64,000 nucleotides of DNA, taken from an uncultured Bacteroidales bacterium (GTDB lineage Bacteria > Bacteroidota > Bacteroidia > Bacteroidales > ML635J-15). The notes under the pieces are model-generated. The model saw only the letters and a program-made list of their open reading frames with translations, was not told the DNA's origin and searched no databases. Positions within the stretch are counted from its first letter, which is position 1, and every line of letters starts with the position of its first letter. The translations under genes were made by a program, and so were the position numbers. Positions 1,664-32,670 of the stretch are shown here, piece by piece. The stretch spans positions 9,135 to 73,134 of the forward strand of contig CAJOIT010000003.1 in the NCBI GenBank assembly GCA_905234755.1, read 5' to 3'.

Positions 1664-2905
1664 TTACACTCCCATTTCTCCCTCTATCAACCTTGGCAGC
1701 AACCTGTCTCTTGCTTCCGTCAGAAGACGAATTTGAGACTGTAAGTTTTTAATGGTTGAAAACAATGGCGAAATTACACAATCGAATTTTATAAGGATTT
1801 CAGAACTTGGCATTACAAAGGGCATATTCTTGATTATTGTTGAATTAACAGCTTTGGATATTCCTGATGTATTACCTAAAGAATCATAATGATAGTTCTT
1901 TAGATACAAAAAAGTATAGCATCTCCAATTATCGTCTTTTTTCATGAAATGAGCAATTGCTTCATTGGTACAAACTGGAATATCTGCAATAGAAACCCTT
2001 CCAACTGTCAATTTAAAGCTAAGAAGTATAGTTCCTTCAGGTACAATTCTGACATTATATTTTGCACATGCTTCCTTTGTGAGTTTTTCGCTTGTTGTAT
2101 TTACATATGTTGCATCTTTCATATCAGTTATTGATACCCATGGAATATCCATATGATTAGTTGAAAACCATTCCTTTTCGGCTCTTGGAGGTGTCTTTCC
2201 TATTGACATGTCAAAGAAATCAATAGCTTTCTTCTTCTCCCATCCCTCCGGCACACCGTCCACAATTTTCGTGCTCTCATATCCAGGGAATCGCAAATCG
2301 ACAAACCATTCCTTGTAGAGCCGCTGTGCCGCTTCCTCCAAAAGTTTTATCTGCTTCTGGTAGTTCTCTATCAGGGCGTCGTAGCGGGATAGGATGGTGG
2401 CAATATGAACCTGATAATCTATTGGGGGCAATGGAAACGGGTAATCTTTTATAGCGCTAATAGCTATTCGCATTTGATTTGCTGCGCCCTTTCCTCTCAT
2501 TTGAATATAGTTTTGAAACAGATAATATTTTGAATAATAGCCAAAATACAACTGGTTCAAGACATTCGTGTTTTTAGATCTAATACAGACAGCATTTTGA
2601 TTCAAATAATAGCCCACGACAGCTGAATTAACGATAATTGAACGACCTGCCGAAGAGTTAACTAAATTAGGATGAGATCCTACCGTAGCTATTATTACAT
2701 CATTTAATTGCAGTTCATTTTGGGAATATTTATGTTTTGATGAATAAGGCAGATAATTAATGTCATCGAGCACAAATCCAGAATTTTTGCAGTTGGTAAC
2801 TTTTAAAACAGGAATGCCTTTCGGTACATATTCTTTATCACTCCACGCACCTCCGTTTATAAAGTCGCAGAGATCTCCCAACATTACTTTCTTCCACTCG
2901 TTCAT
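1664..2905 (-). CDS. hsdS: Type I restriction-modification specificity subunit HsdS (two target-recognition domains)
   Basis: 413 aa. Two TRD-like halves are separated by a conserved coiled-coil spacer (ENYQKQIKLLEEAAQRLYKEWFVDLRFPGYE) and followed by a C-terminal spacer (LQSQIRLLTEARDRLLPRLIEGE). Its ATG overlaps the upstream gene's stop (ATGA). Confidence 0.9.
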   Translation of the reverse strand: MNEWKKVMLGDLCDFINGGAWSDKEYVPKGIPVLKVTNCKNSGFVLDDINYLPYSSKHKYSQNELQLNDVIIATVGSHPNLVNSSAGRSIIVNSAVVGYYLNQNAVCIRSKNTNVLNQLYFGYYSKYYLFQNYIQMRGKGAANQMRIAISAIKDYPFPLPPIDYQVHIATILSRYDALIENYQKQIKLLEEAAQRLYKEWFVDLRFPGYESTKIVDGVPEGWEKKKAIDFFDMSIGKTPPRAEKEWFSTNHMDIPWVSITDMKDATYVNTTSEKLTKEACAKYNVRIVPEGTILLSFKLTVGRVSIADIPVCTNEAIAHFMKKDDNWRCYTFLYLKNYHYDSLGNTSGISKAVNSTIIKNMPFVMPSSEILIKFDCVISPLFSTIKNLQSQIRLLTEARDRLLPRLIEGEMGV

Positions 2906-4068
2906 TTCAACTCCTCCTTCAGTTGTTTCTTCCTCAGTTCCAGTTCGGCCACGGTGCGGTCAACGACCTCCCTCAGTTGGTAAGATGCTACACCCAGGGG
3001 CTTGTTAATGTCTTTGAGCGACCATTCCACGATGGTTTTCTTGGCTGTCTTGCAGATAACCAAACCGACGGAAGGGTTGTCGCCCTCGCCACGAAGCAAC
3101 TCGTCGGCAGCGGTAACGTAAAAATTCAGTTTCCCGGCAAACTCAGGCTCAAACTTCACGGCTTTCAGCTCGATGATAACATAGCGTTTCTGCGGGATAT
3201 GATAAAACACCAAGTCTGGAAAGAAGGTGGTTTCGTCGTCCATGCGCAACTCCATCTGTCGTCCTACAAATGCGAAGCCTTTGCCCAACTCCAAAAGGAA
3301 ACGGGTGATGTTATTGACAAGCGCTTCCTCCAAATCATGCTCGTCATACTTGGCTTTCATCGTCAGGAACTCGAAATTATACTCATCCTTCAGCATTTCC
3401 TTGGCCAATTCGCTTTGTGGTGCAGGCAAGGTCTTGTCGAAATTGGTGATAGCAGCGCCTTGCGACAGATAGCGTTTGGCAGCCATCTGGTCTTCGAGCC
3501 AATTGCGGCTCCAGCCTTCTTCGGCTACCTTATTTATGTAGAAAATCGCCTCCTCTATAGATTGGCTTTTGGTAAAGATTTCCACATGATGTCTCCAAGG
3601 AATTCTACCAAAGATTTCTGGCATTTCTAATTGGTCACCAAGTTGGTGACTTTTTTCTACAGACTCCATTTGGTCACCAAGTTGGTGACTTATTTGAGAT
3701 CCTCTAATTTGGCCAGCAACTTGCTGACTTTTTGTAATATTCTCATAATAAAACGAATACCAGCGCTTCATATACTTAACATTGGTATCGGAGAAGCCCG
3801 TTTCATTAGGGAAGGCCTGACGCATATCGAGAGCAAACTGCTTCACTACTCCTGCGCCCCAACGTTCTTCTGCACGCAGTGCCACCAAATCACGACCAAT
3901 GCTCCAATAAAATTCAAGCATTGCCGTATTCACACGAATGGCTGCCTTTATCTGACTTTGGTGGAAACGCGCCTTTACATCAGACAGCCATTTCACATAT
4001 TCATTGTCGGCAATCGTATTGTCGCGATATACAAATGTCGGTTCGTTCTTTGTTTCTTTCTTTTTCAT
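2902..4068 (-). CDS. DUF1016 / YhcG-like PDDEXK-fold nuclease family protein, inserted between hsdM and hsdS
   Basis: The N-terminal YhcG-like helical region reads YVKWLSDVKARFHQSQIKAAIRVNTAMLEFYWSIGRD. The C-terminal PD-(D/E)xK core reads FFPDLVFYH...YVIIELKAVKF. The ATG at 4068 gives an ATGA overlap with the hsdM stop. The ORF-track start at 4083 is a GTG. Confidence 0.8.
   Translation of the reverse strand: MKKKETKNEPTFVYRDNTIADNEYVKWLSDVKARFHQSQIKAAIRVNTAMLEFYWSIGRDLVALRAEERWGAGVVKQFALDMRQAFPNETGFSDTNVKYMKRWYSFYYENITKSQQVAGQIRGSQISHQLGDQMESVEKSHQLGDQLEMPEIFGRIPWRHHVEIFTKSQSIEEAIFYINKVAEEGWSRNWLEDQMAAKRYLSQGAAITNFDKTLPAPQSELAKEMLKDEYNFEFLTMKAKYDEHDLEEALVNNITRFLLELGKGFAFVGRQMELRMDDETTFFPDLVFYHIPQKRYVIIELKAVKFEPEFAGKLNFYVTAADELLRGEGDNPSVGLVICKTAKKTIVEWSLKDINKPLGVASYQLREVVDRTVAELELRKKQLKEELK
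3631..3691. repeat. Two copies of the 21-mer TTGGTCACCAAGTTGGTGACT inside the DUF1016 gene
   Basis: Identical 21-mers start at 3631 and 3671, 40 nt apart. Each contains the near-palindrome GTCACCAA-G-TTGGTGAC. They encode the duplicated SHQLGDQ peptide. Confidence 0.75.
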
Positions 4069-29640: not shown

Positions 29641-29670
29641 TGTAGGCTCGCAATGCATTGCGAGCCTACA
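29641..29670. repeat. 30-bp perfect palindrome (TAGGCNCGCAATG family, copy 1)
   Basis: TGTAGGCTCGCAATG|CATTGCGAGCCTACA, in the divergent gap/lipoprotein intergenic region. Confidence 0.75.
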
Positions 29671-29709: not shown

Positions 29710-29717
29710 TACCTTTG
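29710..29717 (+). promoter_or_regulatory. -7 promoter box (TAccTTTG) of the lipoprotein / radical SAM / cupin operon
   Basis: TACCTTTG lies 26 nt upstream of the ATG at 29743. AATCGTAAAT sits 5 nt upstream of the box. Confidence 0.55.
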
Positions 29718-29742: not shown

Positions 29743-30303
29743 ATGAAAATTCTAAAGAAGACTTGGATTGGCATACTTGCGCTTGCTACTGCGGTGGTGG
29801 CGGCTTGTACGGCTACAAAGCGCACTCCTGAAACAACAGATACTGCTGAGCCACAACCAACTGACAATGATAATCTTAGTGAAAACGATGAGTTGACTGT
29901 TCCCAAGGATTCGATAAGTGCTCGGCATGCTGAGTTGCAGTCGCGTCTCGAGAGTTTGCGAGCTACAATCAAGGACCGTGAAATGTCGTGCGTTTATGGT
30001 TCTCCAGAGGTTCTTCAGCAATATAGTGCCACTACGCGAGCTATGCGTCATGAGGCTGACTCTTTGCAGAATGAATTGTTGAATATGCTACAATCGGAAA
30101 AGAACACTCTTAAGGAACGCTTGGATGCTATAGATGAGACTGTTAATGCTCGGTCTGGTGCTAAGGTTTACGGTCCGCCCGAGATGATTAATAAGTATAA
30201 TAATCGTACCAACAGTTTGCGCGAAAGTCGTGATTCGCTTCAGAACGAGATTGACAAAATCGACAGAGAAATTTACAACATTAATAATAGTAGCAAGCAA
30301 TAG
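29743..30303 (+). CDS. Lipoprotein with two VYG(S/P)PE...DSLQNE repeats (radical-SAM-associated lipoprotein candidate)
   Basis: Lipobox AVVAAC, then a low-complexity acidic linker. Repeats lie at residues about 83-111 (CVYGSPEVLQQY...EADSLQNEL) and 141-170 (KVYGPPEMINKY...SRDSLQNEI). The stop overlaps the start of the radical SAM gene (TAGTG). Confidence 0.7.
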   Translation: MKILKKTWIGILALATAVVAACTATKRTPETTDTAEPQPTDNDNLSENDELTVPKDSISARHAELQSRLESLRATIKDREMSCVYGSPEVLQQYSATTRAMRHEADSLQNELLNMLQSEKNTLKERLDAIDETVNARSGAKVYGPPEMINKYNNRTNSLRESRDSLQNEIDKIDREIYNINNSSKQ

Positions 30304-31376
30304 TGTCGGAGTTATCCTTATACAAACGGCTTTCGCTTGAATTGAACCGCGCAGTGCTTTCGCTTCGTGCCGATGAACATCATCTTCACCAACTTTTCTG
30401 GGAATGTACTTTGCGGTGTAATCTTAATTGCCGTCATTGCGGAAGCGATTGCCGTGTGGTTTCGCAACAGCAAGATATGCCTCTGGATGATTTTTTGAAA
30501 GTCCTTGATGACATAAAAGCGCATGTTGCTCCATACGACATTATGGTGATTACCACTGGAGGCGAACCGCTTATGCGTGCTGACATTGCTGAATGCGGTC
30601 GTGCTATTACCGAGCGCGGATTCATCTGGGGCATGGTGACAAACGGAATGCTGCTCACCGAGGAAAAATTAAATGAGCTTGTGCGTAACGGTCTGCGCTC
30701 CATCGCGATAAGTCTCGATGGTTTTGCAGATGACCACAACTGGATGCGAGGCCATGCTGATAGTTTTGCAAATGCTATGCGAGCAATTGAGGCGCTGAAA
30801 AAACAAAATGGTCTTGTTTGGGATGTTATCACTTGTGTGAACAAGCGCACAATAAAGTATTTGCCAGAGTTTCGTAATTTCTTGATAGAAAACGGAATAC
30901 GCAAATGGCGGTTGTTCAGCGTATTCCCATCGGGTAGGGCGGCAGATGATCCTGAGTTGCGCCTGAGTAACGAGGAATTTGTGCAGATGATGGATTTTAT
31001 AAAGTTAACTCGTCTCGAAGGCAAAATAGATGCAAGTTATGCCTGCGATGGTTTTCTCGGTCGCTACGAGGGCGAGGTTAGGCGCAAGTATTTCAACTGC
31101 AGTTCGGGCGTGAATGTTGCCTCCATTCGTGCCGATGGGGCGATTTCGGGTTGTCTGAGCATACGCAGCGACTACAATCAGGGCAATATATACACCGATT
31201 CGTTCTGGGATGTGTGGGAAAATCGTTTCGAGAAGTTCCGCAATCGCAAATGGATGCGCACTGGCGACTGCAAGTCGTGTAAGGTATGGCGCTTCTGTCA
31301 GGGAAATGGCATGCATCTTCGTGATGAAAATGGAGAGTTGAAGATGTGCCAGTATCAGATGATAAATGGAAAATAA
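30303..31376 (+). CDS. Radical SAM protein with a SPASM-type C-terminal Cys-rich domain
   Basis: CxxxCxxC cluster motif CNLNCRHCGSDC, then TTGGEPLMR. The C-terminal auxiliary-cluster cysteines are CSSG...GCLS...GDCKSCKVWRFCQGNG. GTG start at 30303. Confidence 0.85.
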   Translation: MSELSLYKRLSLELNRAVLSLRADEHHLHQLFWECTLRCNLNCRHCGSDCRVVSQQQDMPLDDFLKVLDDIKAHVAPYDIMVITTGGEPLMRADIAECGRAITERGFIWGMVTNGMLLTEEKLNELVRNGLRSIAISLDGFADDHNWMRGHADSFANAMRAIEALKKQNGLVWDVITCVNKRTIKYLPEFRNFLIENGIRKWRLFSVFPSGRAADDPELRLSNEEFVQMMDFIKLTRLEGKIDASYACDGFLGRYEGEVRRKYFNCSSGVNVASIRADGAISGCLSIRSDYNQGNIYTDSFWDVWENRFEKFRNRKWMRTGDCKSCKVWRFCQGNGMHLRDENGELKMCQYQMINGK

Positions 31377-31378
31377 AT

Positions 31379-31831
31379 ATGGATTATAAGCATTATATTG
31401 AAAAACTAGGCCTTATGCCTCATCCCGAGGGTGGATATTACCGTCAGGTGTACGGCAATGATGAGAATGGTGAAAAGCAAATCTCTACCATATATTATAT
31501 GCTTTGTGGCGATGAATTTTCGGCTTTCCACAAGTTGCACGGCATGTCCGAAATCTGGTATTACCATGCTGGCGAGTGCCTCGACATATATGTTATTGAT
31601 GCAAAGGGCGAACTTGTTGTTCATCATTTGTCCGCAGATGCCGAAATGCAGGTTGTAATTGAACCGGAACAATGGTTTGCTGCAGAATTGCCTTGCAAGA
31701 AGGGTTTTTCTCTTGTCGGATGCGCGGTGGCACCTGCATTTAAATTTGAGAATTTCGAACTTGCGAAAAAGGAAAAACTTTTACGAGACTTCCCACAGCA
31801 TGGCGCATTGATAGAAAGGTTGTGCAGATAA
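31379..31831 (+). CDS. Cupin (DUF985-like) protein
   Basis: L.PHPEGGYYRQVY N-terminal signature followed by WYYHAGE. The ATG at 31379 lies 2 nt after the radical SAM stop. Confidence 0.7.
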   Translation: MDYKHYIEKLGLMPHPEGGYYRQVYGNDENGEKQISTIYYMLCGDEFSAFHKLHGMSEIWYYHAGECLDIYVIDAKGELVVHHLSADAEMQVVIEPEQWFAAELPCKKGFSLVGCAVAPAFKFENFELAKKEKLLRDFPQHGALIERLCR

Positions 31832-31862: not shown

Positions 31863-31870
31863 TATCTTTG
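31863..31870 (+). promoter_or_regulatory. -7 promoter box (TAtcTTTG) of the VanX-like dipeptidase gene
   Basis: TATCTTTG lies 24 nt upstream of the ATG at 31894. Confidence 0.55.
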
Positions 31871-31893: not shown

Positions 31894-32670
31894 ATGAATA
31901 AAAAAAGTTTACTTTATGCAATTGTTGCACTTGCAATGAGCATGTTGGTTTTGTCGTGCCAGAACAAGGAAAATGCTAGTGTAGCAGAACCTCAAACCGA
32001 AATTAAGGAAGAAGTTACAACTGTTGAAACAACTACAGCAGATACTCCAGTCTCAGAGGCATCTAAGAATGGTTTTGTAGTTGTTACCGATGTTGTCCCC
32101 GATGCAATTCTCGAAATCCGCTATTTCAGCACATTCAACTTTATGGGTGTGCGTGTCGATGGCTACAATGCTCCGATAGCATATCTTACAAAGGAAGCAG
32201 CCGACAGCTTGAAGGCCGTTAGCGATGATGTGAAGGCAATGGGATACCGCCTGAAAATATTCGATGCTTACCGTCCTCAATGTGCTGTAGATCATTTTGT
32301 TCGCTGGTCGCATGAAGCATCAGACACTCTTATGAAACGCTATTTCTATCCCGATATTGACAAGCCTCGTCTTTTCGAAGAAGGTTACATAGCAAAGAAA
32401 AGCAGACATACCTGTGGCTCTACAATTGACCTGACGCTTTTCGACATGAACACCGAAAAGGAGGTTGACATGGGTTCTCCGTTCGATTGGCTAGGCGAAG
32501 AAAGTCATCCCGACTATGCTGGCGTAACTCCCGAGCAGCACAAGAATCGCATGATTTTGCGTGATGCAATGGTTCGACATGGATTCAGAGGTATTAGCAC
32601 AGAGTGGTGGCATTTCGTTCTCAAGAACGAACCTTATCCTGATACATATTTTACATTCCCGATAGAGTAG
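31894..32670 (+). CDS. D-alanyl-D-alanine dipeptidase (peptidase M15D, VanX-like), exported
   Basis: Signal/lipobox LVLSC. VanX-type motifs: FDAYRP, SRHTCGSTIDLTL, EWWHF. Confidence 0.8.
   Translation: MNKKSLLYAIVALAMSMLVLSCQNKENASVAEPQTEIKEEVTTVETTTADTPVSEASKNGFVVVTDVVPDAILEIRYFSTFNFMGVRVDGYNAPIAYLTKEAADSLKAVSDDVKAMGYRLKIFDAYRPQCAVDHFVRWSHEASDTLMKRYFYPDIDKPRLFEEGYIAKKSRHTCGSTIDLTLFDMNTEKEVDMGSPFDWLGEESHPDYAGVTPEQHKNRMILRDAMVRHGFRGISTEWWHFVLKNEPYPDTYFTFPIE

Follow-up and report, generated by a model that had tools for sequence, protein, structure and literature searches.

Protein spliceases (PlpX, PcpX, RhaX; Morinaka 2018; Scott 2022) excise a tyramine equivalent, C8H9NO, from the Tyr of an X-Y-G sequence, which corresponds to a mass change of approx. 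-135.07 Da per site (PMC10533398). Their published recognition motif is X-Y-G with a free X (PMC11414181, PMC9811515), and they are able to act on internal loops of full-size proteins (PMC11414181, PMC10533398, PMC11626197). The native site of PlpA2, PIRPLYGLPI, contains L-Y-G-L-P.

The radical SAM (rSAM) family TIGR04133 and its lipoprotein partner TIGR04134 are hypothetical equivalogs of NCBIfam/TIGRFAMs without described function, and the searchable literature yielded neither biochemical data nor a function for the TIGR04133 family. TIGR04134 proteins are beta-rich, approx. 150 aa long, weakly similar to CarboxypepD_reg, and carry one E/M-Y-G-x-P sequence just past the lipobox. The anSME enzymes (AtsB, ChuR, anSMEcpe) are SPASM rSAM proteins which modify a short motif in a full-length, export-bound protein before its export and folding. 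Here an rSAM-lipoprotein pair of a rumen Bacteroidales bacterium is compared with these systems; the whole stretch of DNA analysed, 64,000 nucleotides, is referred to as the window.

Results

Organization of the locus

The features of the locus are collected in Table 1. The genes, motifs, overlaps and the promoter-like hexamer were all found where the first-pass annotation of this DNA had placed them. The GTG start codon of the rSAM gene overlaps the stop codon of the lipoprotein gene (TAGTG), and this start is backed by an 88% identical homolog which has ATG at the same position (MGELSLYKRLSLELNR). Since the genes overlap or sit 2 nt apart, there is no room here for a small ORF of the Y-protein type. 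The TAnnTTTG motif is weakly enriched in the window (74 matches vs 56 expected); the divergent GAPDH gene likewise has a copy 26 nt away (29477, minus strand), and at 31863 another promoter-like motif precedes the M15 gene downstream. The neighbours of the pair encode GAPDH, glutathione peroxidase, a PLD-like protein, a cupin and an M15 peptidase.

Table 1. Features of the rSAM-lipoprotein locus; positions are those of the window.
Feature	Position	Strand	Remarks
Bacteroidetes-type -7 promoter motif TAnnTTTG (TACCTTTG)	29710..29717	+	26 nt upstream of the lipoprotein ATG
Lipoprotein precursor, 186 aa	29743..30303	+	Signal peptide with lipobox Cys22, acidic tether, three-helix bundle; proposed substrate
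Signal peptide and lipobox MKILKKTWIGILALATAVVAAC	29743..29808	+	Conserved K-x-W-I feature; family alignment
Motif 1, V84-Y85-G86-S87-P88-E89 (VYGSPE)	29992..30009	+	First helix-helix hairpin loop; proposed modification site
Motif 2, V142-Y143-G144-P145-P146-E147 (VYGPPE)	30166..30183	+	Second hairpin loop; proposed modification site
TIGR04133 radical SAM/SPASM enzyme, 357 aa	30303..31376	+	550.1 bits; proposed maturase
CX3CX2C radical SAM cluster motif (C39, C43, C46)	30417..30440	+	Invariant in family alignment
SPASM region, 7 Cys (C248, C266, C284, C323, C326, C332, C349)	31044..31349	+	Alignment
DUF985/Cupin_5 gene	31379..31831	+	PF06172, E = 7e-35; co-transcribed here, probable passenger of local synteny

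The radical SAM enzyme

The rSAM protein is a true member of TIGR04133 (rSAM_w_lipo), with a score of 550.1 bits (cutoff 425, E = 1.8e-165) over profile positions 2-349 of 350; the model names rSAM_w_lipo and lipo_with_rSAM, given for this pair in the first-pass annotation, proved to be correct. Two Pfam domains scored above their cutoffs, PF04055 (86.6 bits) and the SPASM domain PF13186 (33.9 bits, cutoff 21.5), and residues 39-50 read CNLNCRHCGSDC. One helix only precedes the core of the enzyme, and an N-terminal RRE domain is not present. Foldseek and profile comparisons gave SkfB, anSME, SuiB and PqqE as the nearest structures; these closest solved relatives are without exception peptide- or protein-modifying enzymes. 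In the PDB the best single sequence match was BlsE, a sugar-nucleotide decarboxylase. TIGR04133 is an abundant family, with more than 8000 clusters of 90% identity below E = 1e-20 and matches in at least 583 species-representative genomes, and it occurs in Bacteroides, Phocaeicola, Prevotella, Alistipes, Parabacteroides and rumen Bacteroidales.

For the comparison with PlpX, the sequence of the latter was taken from its genomic locus. BLASTP aligned the two enzymes over their full length (125 bits, E = 4e-37, 28% identity over 320 aa), while PqqE and SkfB reached 38 and 35 bits with the window enzyme. Among the peptide-maturase models the best one for the window enzyme was TIGR04103, the PlpX family, with 129.3 bits; it is not a member of that family, since the cutoff is 725 bits and PlpX itself scores 824. 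In the opposite direction TIGR04133 was the third best full-length maturase model of PlpX (148 bits), above MftC, PqqE and SkfB. Judged from these scores, the window enzyme and PlpX are related, yet belong to separate families, and PlpX is the characterised peptide maturase most similar to it. The models of AhbD (134 bits), NirJ (126 bits) and AhbC also stood among the top non-self HMMs of the window enzyme, at 120-134 bits, far below their own cutoffs of 500-650 bits. Homology alone does not single out splicing, because AhbD and NirJ score as well as TIGR04103 does and the latter score lies far below the TIGR04103 cutoff.

The cysteine patterns of the two families differ. CX2CX5CX3C is kept in PlpX, while TIGR04133 has lost its fourth Cys and gained an upstream one; in the window enzyme G336 stands in the place of the fourth Cys and aligns with C330 of anSME, which keeps all eight SPASM Cys. 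Because of this change the auxiliary-cluster environment differs between TIGR04133 and PlpX.

The lipoprotein

The lipoprotein carries the lipobox VAAC and two repeats which start at S82 and A140, are spaced by 58 aa and share 15 of 31 positions. AlphaFold2 predicts a disordered acidic tether (aa 23-54) followed by a three-helix bundle (helices 55-81, 88-137 and 146-183; pLDDT >90 over aa 60-180). A conserved helix stands ahead of each VYG motif, and both motifs are placed in the hairpin loops of the bundle, that of motif 1 being 82-87, with YG in a tight turn and P-E capping the next helix. Y85, G86, P88 and E89 are invariant across 29 homologs. In a six-frame translation of the 64-kb window, counting segments of 50 aa or more, YG.P occurs five times, two of them in this 186-aa protein.

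Profile searches gave no Pfam or NCBIfam family match for the lipoprotein, and TIGR04134 (curated cutoff 39.8 bits) did not match it even at E = 10. Thus the family assignment of the first-pass annotation was borne out for the enzyme only: the lipoprotein is not a TIGR04134 member and has a different, helical scaffold. Its helical repeats hold two V-Y-G-x-P-E loops far from the lipobox, and it shares with the TIGR04134 proteins only the style of the signal peptide and the motif. The helical family is small (approx. 80 clusters, 1-3 repeats each), with W8 and C22 invariant; one-, two- and three-repeat forms exist, and 69 of 77 representatives carry 1-3 motifs. This two-site class is a partner family without an earlier model.

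Co-conservation of the enzyme and the lipoproteins

The survey from the rSAM side covered 80 Bacteroidales loci with a TIGR04133 enzyme. A lipoprotein gene was adjacent on the same strand in 77 of them, and a partner lay within 4 kb in 79. The adjacent lipoprotein contained YG.P in 72 loci, mostly at -20 to +40 nt from the rSAM gene, X-Y-G without the Pro in two, and MYATP instead of X-Y-G in one; in two further loci the adjacent partner was cut by the contig end. The partner lay 2.9-3.7 kb off in two loci and a single locus had none. X-Y-G, usually as X-Y-G-x-P, was therefore found in 74 of the 75 evaluable partners. From the lipoprotein side, the rSAM gene was adjacent in six of eight contexts. 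Exceptions occur on both sides: an orphan rSAM (L081) with 88% identity to the window enzyme, and helical lipoproteins without adjacent rSAM (P0058, P0043). The lipoprotein and the rSAM are strongly, though not absolutely, co-conserved, and the class of the partner follows the rSAM clade. The partner genes often stand in tandem arrays of 2-4, which resemble precursor arrays.

The partners fall on three unrelated scaffolds, namely the helical repeats, which have no TIGR04134 match, the TIGR04134 beta domain (80-129 bits, the Parabacteroides and Bacteroides loci serving as positive controls) and short Pro-rich peptides. All three share [VILME]-Y-G-x-P, in which Y and G are invariant and X is variable, being Val/Ile/Leu in the helical partners and Glu/Met in the TIGR04134 ones. 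The motif density was 10.7 per 1000 residues in the partners and 0.31 in the control ORFs, i.e. the other ORFs of the same loci, a 34-fold enrichment. The contexts of the motif differ widely: helical hairpins, Pro-rich tails and the N-termini of beta domains, and low-complexity partners of 55-100 aa keep only the 5-residue motif beside the enzyme, often in several copies. In the TIGR04134-type partners it lies 7-16 residues past the lipobox Cys among acidic residues, a surrounding which we take to resemble the lipoprotein export signal of Bacteroidetes. Cys stands two residues before Tyr in 31 of 93 motifs, and some partners have Gly right after Y-G (MYGGP). The Y-G motif is the only feature common to these otherwise unrelated partners, and the view that YG-P is the conspicuous candidate site is thus supported.

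The signal peptides have an unusual, conserved feature in common as well. [KRN]x0-2W[IVLY] was present in 56 of 98 partner signal peptides and in 2 of 86 control lipoproteins, the sequences being phylogenetically non-independent. This is compatible with recognition before the cleavage of the signal peptide, and the signal peptide with its K-x-W-I could possibly be a leader-like recognition element.

Discussion

Since the enzyme is nearly always found beside lipoproteins which share only this motif, it very probably modifies them at Tyr-Gly. Modification of the lipoprotein before its export is also probable. For an enzyme acting in the cytoplasm on an exported protein, a difficulty raised in the first-pass annotation, anSME provides the precedent, in agreement with the Foldseek and full-length profile similarity of the window enzyme to it. 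The anSME motif, (C/S)-x-(P/A)-x-R, and its target residue differ from X-Y-G-x-P and its Tyr, and translational coupling to one substrate gene, as seen for the window rSAM, is not usual among the anSME genes.

As a whole, we tentatively regard the lipoprotein and the TIGR04133 enzyme as a two-component protein-maturation system, most likely with splicease-type chemistry. We infer the substrate relationship, the pre-export timing, the chemistry and the role in physiology as follows. Through translational coupling the rSAM would be produced directly after the lipoprotein, and it would act in the cytoplasm on the still-unfolded precursor bearing its signal peptide. The invariant X-Tyr-Gly-x-Pro sites, later the two exposed hairpin loops of the folded bundle, would be modified, after which Sec would export the protein, Cys22 would be lipidated and the disordered linker of approx. 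30 residues would tether it to a membrane. The splicease reaction would excise the tyramine equivalent from Tyr and leave a reactive ketoamide. The product would thus display a ketoamide warhead at either end of the bundle, and could be e.g. a membrane-anchored covalent-reversible protease inhibitor.

Tyramine excision at X-Y-G was not considered in the earlier annotation and is added here as a candidate. By analogy with the spliceases it may be the most likely chemistry at Tyr-Gly, a plausible choice to be held with reservation. In both cases an rSAM/SPASM enzyme is encoded beside one or several substrate genes with one or several X-Y-G motifs of variable X, and, as in the binary splicease types, neither an RRE domain or protein nor a Y protein is found at the window pair. 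In the spliceases an activating helix is contributed by an RRE-like Y protein or by the leader of the substrate; the window lipoprotein has the helix ahead of each motif and an unusually conserved signal peptide. Besides the enzyme family and its SPASM Cys pattern, the differences concern the proposed substrate and its surroundings. The window lipoprotein has a Sec/SPase II signal instead of the Nif11- or NHLP-type leader of a RiPP precursor. Nif11 precursors, PlpY and a C39 ABC exporter are encoded at the plp locus, while the window locus is without leader protease or ABC exporter; its product would stay membrane-anchored as a structural protein and not be released as a peptide. When a natural fusion of rSAM and partner (P0145) was modelled with AlphaFold2, the YG segment remained undocked (pLDDT <50). 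Neither the Pro at the second position after Gly nor the Cys that often stands two positions ahead of Tyr is a known splicease requirement; both could mean another chemistry or simply reflect the structure of the loop.

It is a real possibility that the same enzyme acts on the same substrate and site by another radical reaction, which would give a rigidified or altered loop and not a ketoamide; the candidates are a crosslink centred on Tyr through a C-C or C-O bond, epimerisation at Calpha, beta-hydroxylation and thioether formation from the Cys at -2. The co-conservation and the motif point to the site, not to the reaction, and SPASM enzymes such as SuiB, SkfB, PqqE and anSME catalyse many reactions. 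Moreover, the Cys pattern is unlike that of PlpX, and the vacant ligand position of one auxiliary cluster recalls enzymes which bind their substrate at the cluster; the invariant Pro and the Cys at -2 in a third of the motifs fit in the same direction. However, the strictly invariant Tyr with the next Gly and a free preceding residue is the exact splicease signature, and PlpX is the nearest characterised peptide maturase. The thioether cannot be the conserved reaction, because the Cys at -2 is missing from most motifs, and the Gly after Y-G in MYGGP speaks against a three-residue cyclophane to the Cbeta of that residue.

Action of the rSAM on a non-protein substrate, a tetrapyrrole or another small molecule as in case of AhbD, NirJ and BlsE, with the lipoprotein as a linked binding, transport or sensing partner and Y-G-x-P as a structural or ligand-binding element, seems improbable. 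The scores of the models of AhbD, NirJ and AhbC equal that of the splicease model, BlsE is the best PDB match, and orphans exist among both the rSAMs and the lipoproteins. The likeness to BlsE is, however, confined to the N-terminal core, while the full-length matches are protein-modifying enzymes, and AhbD, NirJ and AhbC lie in heme or heme d1 operons, whereas the window pair has no tetrapyrrole context and a conserved, motif-bearing protein partner. Ligand binding could not explain why unrelated folds keep only a 5-residue motif beside the enzyme. A cytoplasmic enzyme and a mature lipoprotein outside the cytoplasm cannot cooperate after export.

Still less probable is a role of Y-G-x-P in sorting, processing or structure (as surface-export signal, protease site or helix-capping turn) unrelated to the rSAM, the gene adjacency being historical. 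The helix cap and tight turn of the AlphaFold2 model and the position of the TIGR04134-type motif close to the lipobox would suit such a signal; but the enrichment is specific to the rSAM-adjacent lipoproteins in comparison with the other ORFs of the same loci, the motif occurs in very different structural contexts, and the partner class follows the rSAM clade. The motif is also absent from the 86 control lipoproteins, by construction of that comparison.

The cupin had been annotated as the third member of a trio. Its ATG (31379) lies 2 nt past the rSAM stop without a promoter motif of its own, and it is found with the pair only in L001, L089 and L092, the closest relatives of the window, so that of the expected co-occurrence the lipoprotein-rSAM part stood and the cupin part did not. 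It is not downstream of the rSAM in 78 of the 80 genome loci, nor in L081-L086, L090 and L091; where it is missing, shikimate kinase or unrelated genes come after the rSAM. In L092 the rSAM and the cupin are split by a Fic gene, which lies on the opposite strand. Since the cupin is missing from the other loci and is separated by this insertion, its presence follows the GAPDH...M15 synteny local to one lineage and not the system, and it is not co-conserved with the pair. A three-component system in which the cupin carries out a second step (e.g. oxidation or isomerisation) is therefore very improbable and largely refuted by these comparative data, even if L001 and L089 repeat the arrangement of the window.

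The description of a radical SAM gene beside a lipoprotein gene is narrowed here to a precise hypothesis which is cheap to test: an X-Y-G-x-P site with a predicted change of approx. -135.07 Da for each. With some doubt, TIGR04133 could be a large, unrecognised branch of the protein spliceases, which in hundreds of Bacteroidales species of the gut and rumen would put alpha-keto-beta-amino acid (ketoamide) residues into exported lipoproteins; the maturase would also use the lipoprotein signal peptide for recognition, and the specificity of the resulting membrane-anchored covalent protease inhibitor, or reactive handle, would be set by X. If the chemistry differs, the system would still be a new protein modification at a defined site. 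If the splicease reading is true, the family would be a source of leaderless, naturally protein-directed spliceases for protein engineering, and backbone splicing would be a widespread modification of cell-envelope proteins in the gut microbiota, not just a feature of peptide natural products, with possible roles in protease resistance or inhibition and in covalent surface chemistry.

Organization of the gene cluster and family assignments

Direct reading of the sequence confirmed the three closely spaced plus-strand genes of the first-pass annotation (29743-31831), with positions and packing as claimed. The lipoprotein contains a pair of similar 31-aa segments, which begin at S82 and A140, agree at 15 of 31 positions and carry the motifs VYGSPE and VYGPPE; the stretches with the two VYG sites are REMSCVYGSPEVLQQ and SGAKVYGPPEMINK. 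The radical SAM (rSAM) enzyme contains CNLNCRHCGSDC and has a Cys-rich C-terminus, and a homolog of 88% identity has ATG at the position equivalent to its GTG start. A Bacteroidetes-type TAnnTTTG motif was found 26 nt upstream of the lipoprotein ATG, and a second copy precedes the divergent GAPDH gene, likewise by 26 nt. Since this motif precedes the lipoprotein gene and the M15 peptidase gene after the cupin has a separate one, lipoprotein, rSAM and cupin genes are most simply regarded as one transcription unit.

Features of the gene cluster and its surroundings in the window
Feature	Position	Strand	Remarks
Palindrome, perfect, 30 bp	29641-29670		TGTAGGCTCGCAATG/CATTGCGAGCCTACA, no spacer; GAPDH/lipoprotein divergent intergenic region, ~40 nt upstream of TAnnTTTG
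Lipoprotein precursor, 186 aa	29743-30303	+	signal peptide MKILKKTWIGILALATAVVAAC, lipobox Cys22, acidic low-complexity stretch
Signal peptide region	29743-29808		
rSAM gene	30303-31376	+	GTG start overlapping the lipoprotein stop (TAGTG)
SPASM region, rSAM aa 323-349	31269-31349		C-x2-C-x5-C-Q-G-N-G-M-H
Cupin gene	31379-31831	+	ATG 2 nt past the rSAM stop
TAnnTTTG of the M15 gene	31863-31870		
M15 dipeptidase	31894-32670	+	VanX-like D-Ala-D-Ala dipeptidase; lipoprotein-type signal (…MSMLVLSC)

The neighbouring genes are housekeeping ones (GAPDH, glutathione peroxidase, PLD-like protein, HD-domain protein), and the nearest genomic relatives are MAGs of uncultured rumen Bacteroidales (95% identity in L001; L and P handles denote loci and proteins of relatives, respectively). 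A role for the palindrome as operator or bidirectional structural element is conceivable. The M15 dipeptidase (PF01427, E = 2.7e-40; 203 bits against NF033115, under its cutoff of 320) lies in synteny with the cupin in L089, and elsewhere it has no link to the rSAM system.

The rSAM enzyme is a clear member of TIGR04133 'rSAM_w_lipo' (550 bits, cutoff 425) and also matches the Pfam Radical_SAM and SPASM families, while the cupin belongs to PF06172 (DUF985; E = 7e-35). Pfam and NCBIfam scans gave no family for the window lipoprotein, but sub-threshold, uninformative coiled-coil noise alone (SMC, Rad50, CdvA). The pair of TIGRFAMs models given in the first-pass annotation was correctly named, and its enzyme half applies; the lipoprotein half does not, since the window lipoprotein gave no hit to TIGR04134 'lipo_with_rSAM' at a threshold as loose as E = 10. 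As a positive control, this model scored 80-129 bits on rSAM-adjacent lipoproteins of Parabacteroides and Bacteroides.

A conserved trio including the cupin, as originally proposed, was not supported. Apart from the window, the cupin directly follows the rSAM gene in its nearest relatives alone (L001, L089); in L092 an opposite-strand Fic gene lies between the two, and in other loci a shikimate kinase or an unrelated gene is found downstream of the rSAM. On these comparative grounds the cupin was rejected as a third component. In the clade with helical partners, a shikimate kinase (PF01202) very often lies 3' of the rSAM gene, sometimes overlapping its stop (L003-L019, L082, L083, L085); the cupin takes its place in the window lineage, and this synteny has no evident functional link.

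Co-conservation of the rSAM enzyme and its partner lipoproteins

By ORF analysis we surveyed 80 loci with TIGR04133 relatives, taken from species-representative genomes and spanning Bacteroides, Phocaeicola, Prevotella/Xylanibacter, Alistipes, Parabacteroides, Muribaculaceae, Paludibacteraceae and rumen MAGs. The outcome of this co-occurrence check favoured the pairing of lipoprotein and rSAM: an adjacent same-strand lipoprotein with YG.P was present in 72 of the 80 loci, typically separated from the rSAM gene by -20 to +40 nt, upstream of it in most cases and downstream in some. Among the other loci, two had an adjacent partner with X-Y-G lacking the Pro at +2, one had an adjacent partner with MYATP, two had lost the partner N-terminus to a contig end, in two the partner was 2.9-3.7 kb distant, and one had no partner within 4 kb.

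The partners fall into several families rather than one. Helical repeat partners accompany enzymes at least 68% identical to that of the window. More distant enzymes have TIGR04134 beta-domain partners with one E/M-Y-G-x-P, 7-16 residues past the lipobox; Pro-rich peptides of 55-100 aa with one to three motif copies and a residual class of K/E-rich proteins (230-330 aa) also occur. All 93 motifs have the Tyr and the Gly, and nearly all have Pro at +2 after Gly; the residue before Tyr varies (V32, M22, E21, L9, I8). The motif density was 10.7 per 1000 residues in the partners versus 0.31 in long control ORFs of the same loci, a 34-fold difference.

When sampled from the lipoprotein side, the rSAM gene was directly downstream in six of eight contexts and not in the other two. 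The association is therefore very strong but, in view of these two contexts and the orphan rSAM gene of L081, not obligatory in cis. The orphan (L081, 3848-4921), 88% identical to the window enzyme, has neither lipoprotein nor cupin at its locus and adjoins a divergent HydF-like GTPase gene. At the P0058 locus (GCA_016648615.1) a shikimate kinase comes directly after a one-repeat lipoprotein with VYGSPE, the rSAM being absent there, and L087 has a two-repeat lipoprotein standing alone (2501-3067).

Tandem arrays, in which two to four differing YG-motif lipoprotein genes lie upstream of one rSAM gene, are frequent (L024, L028, L040, L065, L077, L015) and recall multi-precursor RiPP loci. In the metagenomic protein P0145 (508 aa) one ORF joins a TIGR04133 enzyme to a downstream TIGR04134-type partner, with the junction …CHLHKLF-TLLSGALVALGFTACDD…PLEYGSPSVEYRVKG…; this is either a true fusion or a frameshift/assembly artefact, and in the related genomes L021 and L061 a gap of 11-16 nt separates the two genes. 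The AlphaFold2 model of P0145 gave pLDDT < 50 for the linker with LEYGSP and no docking signal.

The helical lipoprotein family and its predicted structure

A word-indexed search yielded 62 relatives of the window lipoprotein, and a profile search run exhaustively over 1.84 billion representatives gave just 80 at E ≤ 1e-3, versus more than 8000 clusters for the rSAM enzyme. Family members have one, two or three repeats with the invariant core R-E-x-x-C-[VIL]-Y-G-[SPT]-P-E, and one to three YG.P motifs were present in 69 of 77 representatives. With the family alignment, AlphaFold2 predicted residues 60-180 of the window lipoprotein at pLDDT > 90, as three long antiparallel helices (55-81, 88-137, 146-183) preceded by a disordered tether (23-54). 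In the model each of the two hairpin loops, one at either end of the bundle, holds a VYG motif, the P-E capping the following helix. A Foldseek search of the model against the PDB returned nothing significant (best E = 0.1, generic helical bundles).

Proposed substrate, modification site and timing

Since the partner scaffolds are unrelated and yet keep the five-residue motif, in differing numbers of copies and beside a SPASM radical SAM enzyme, the Y-G motif is the candidate modification site, and we consider it quite probable that the lipoprotein is the enzyme's substrate, modified at this motif. The substrate pair suggested in the first-pass annotation thus gains support from adjacency and from the motif common to the partners. 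The full-length sequence and structure neighbours of the window enzyme are protein- or peptide-modifying SPASM enzymes (PqqE, anSME, SuiB, SkfB).

Because the enzyme is cytoplasmic and the motif lies in tight loops of a folded bundle, modification would take place on the lipoprotein precursor prior to Sec export, a timing which translational coupling would favour. The maturase anSME likewise acts on sulfatases ahead of export.

The partner signal peptides are unusually conserved in spite of unrelated mature domains (L001-L092 and the window), with K/R-x-x-W-[IL] in the n/h-region and, in the non-helical classes, LLGF-x-x-C lipoboxes. The pattern [KRN]x0-2W[IVLY] occurred in 56 of 98 partner signal peptides versus 2 of 86 control lipoproteins, counts which are inflated by shared ancestry. 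The partner signal peptide may double as a leader or recognition element for the maturase. TIGR04134-type partners have Asp/Glu-rich residues immediately after the lipobox Cys, a stretch which we take to resemble the Bacteroidetes surface-lipoprotein export signal.

Candidate chemistry

Radical SAM spliceases recognize X-Y-G, in which Tyr-Gly is invariant and the residue before it is free (PMC11414181, PMC9811515); they act on internal loops in full-size proteins, and 'binary' types without an RRE protein occur. The native site of the precursor PlpA2, PIRPLYGLPI, contains L-Y-G-L-P, and the partners carry X-Y-G-x-P. The sequence of its splicease, PlpX, was obtained from the Pleurocapsa PCC 7319 locus via the precursor PlpA3 and scored 824 bits against the splicease model TIGR04103. 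PlpX gave a full-length alignment to the window enzyme (125 bits, E = 4e-37, 28% identity), far above the scores of all enzymes with a solved structure (PqqE, 38 bits; SkfB, 35 bits). Among peptide-maturase models, TIGR04103 also scored best for the window enzyme, and PlpX reached 148 bits against TIGR04133, among the best full-length matches and above MftC, PqqE and SkfB. Splicing at Tyr-Gly is therefore a serious candidate, to which we give somewhat less than an even chance.

The main rival is another chemistry at the same Tyr-Gly. The window enzyme scores equally well against the tetrapyrrole enzymes AhbD and NirJ and falls far under the TIGR04103 cutoff. A derived SPASM feature common to PlpX and TIGR04133 was rejected, since PlpX has the canonical CX2CX5CX3C whereas TIGR04133 has a 4-residue deletion there and lacks the fourth Cys. 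The missing Cys aligns with C330 of anSME, a ligand of auxiliary cluster I; TIGR04133 has an invariant His338 after the deletion and an extra invariant Cys248 upstream. This suggests, at the level of the alignment, a rearranged or open coordination site of the auxiliary cluster. A thioether from the Cys at -2 was rejected as the conserved reaction, because only about one motif in three has this Cys.

The enzyme-lipoprotein pairing was already captured by two curated HMMs without assigned function. The splicease survey of Scott and colleagues in Chem reportedly comprises 27 characterised and 939 predicted systems from 189 genera. Our literature search retrieved no paper on TIGR04133/TIGR04134 chemistry, although the family may already be predicted in that survey (Scott et al., Chem 2022), and none tying spliceases to lipoproteins or Bacteroidales. 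New here are the helical partner class containing the window lipoprotein, X-Y-G-x-P as the sole common denominator across the partner classes, the exclusion of the cupin from the system and the explicit splicease hypothesis. The latter predicts a mass shift of about -135.07 Da at each VYG site, testable by mass spectrometry. The rSAM-lipoprotein system, as yet uncharacterised, occurs widely among Bacteroidales of the gut and rumen.
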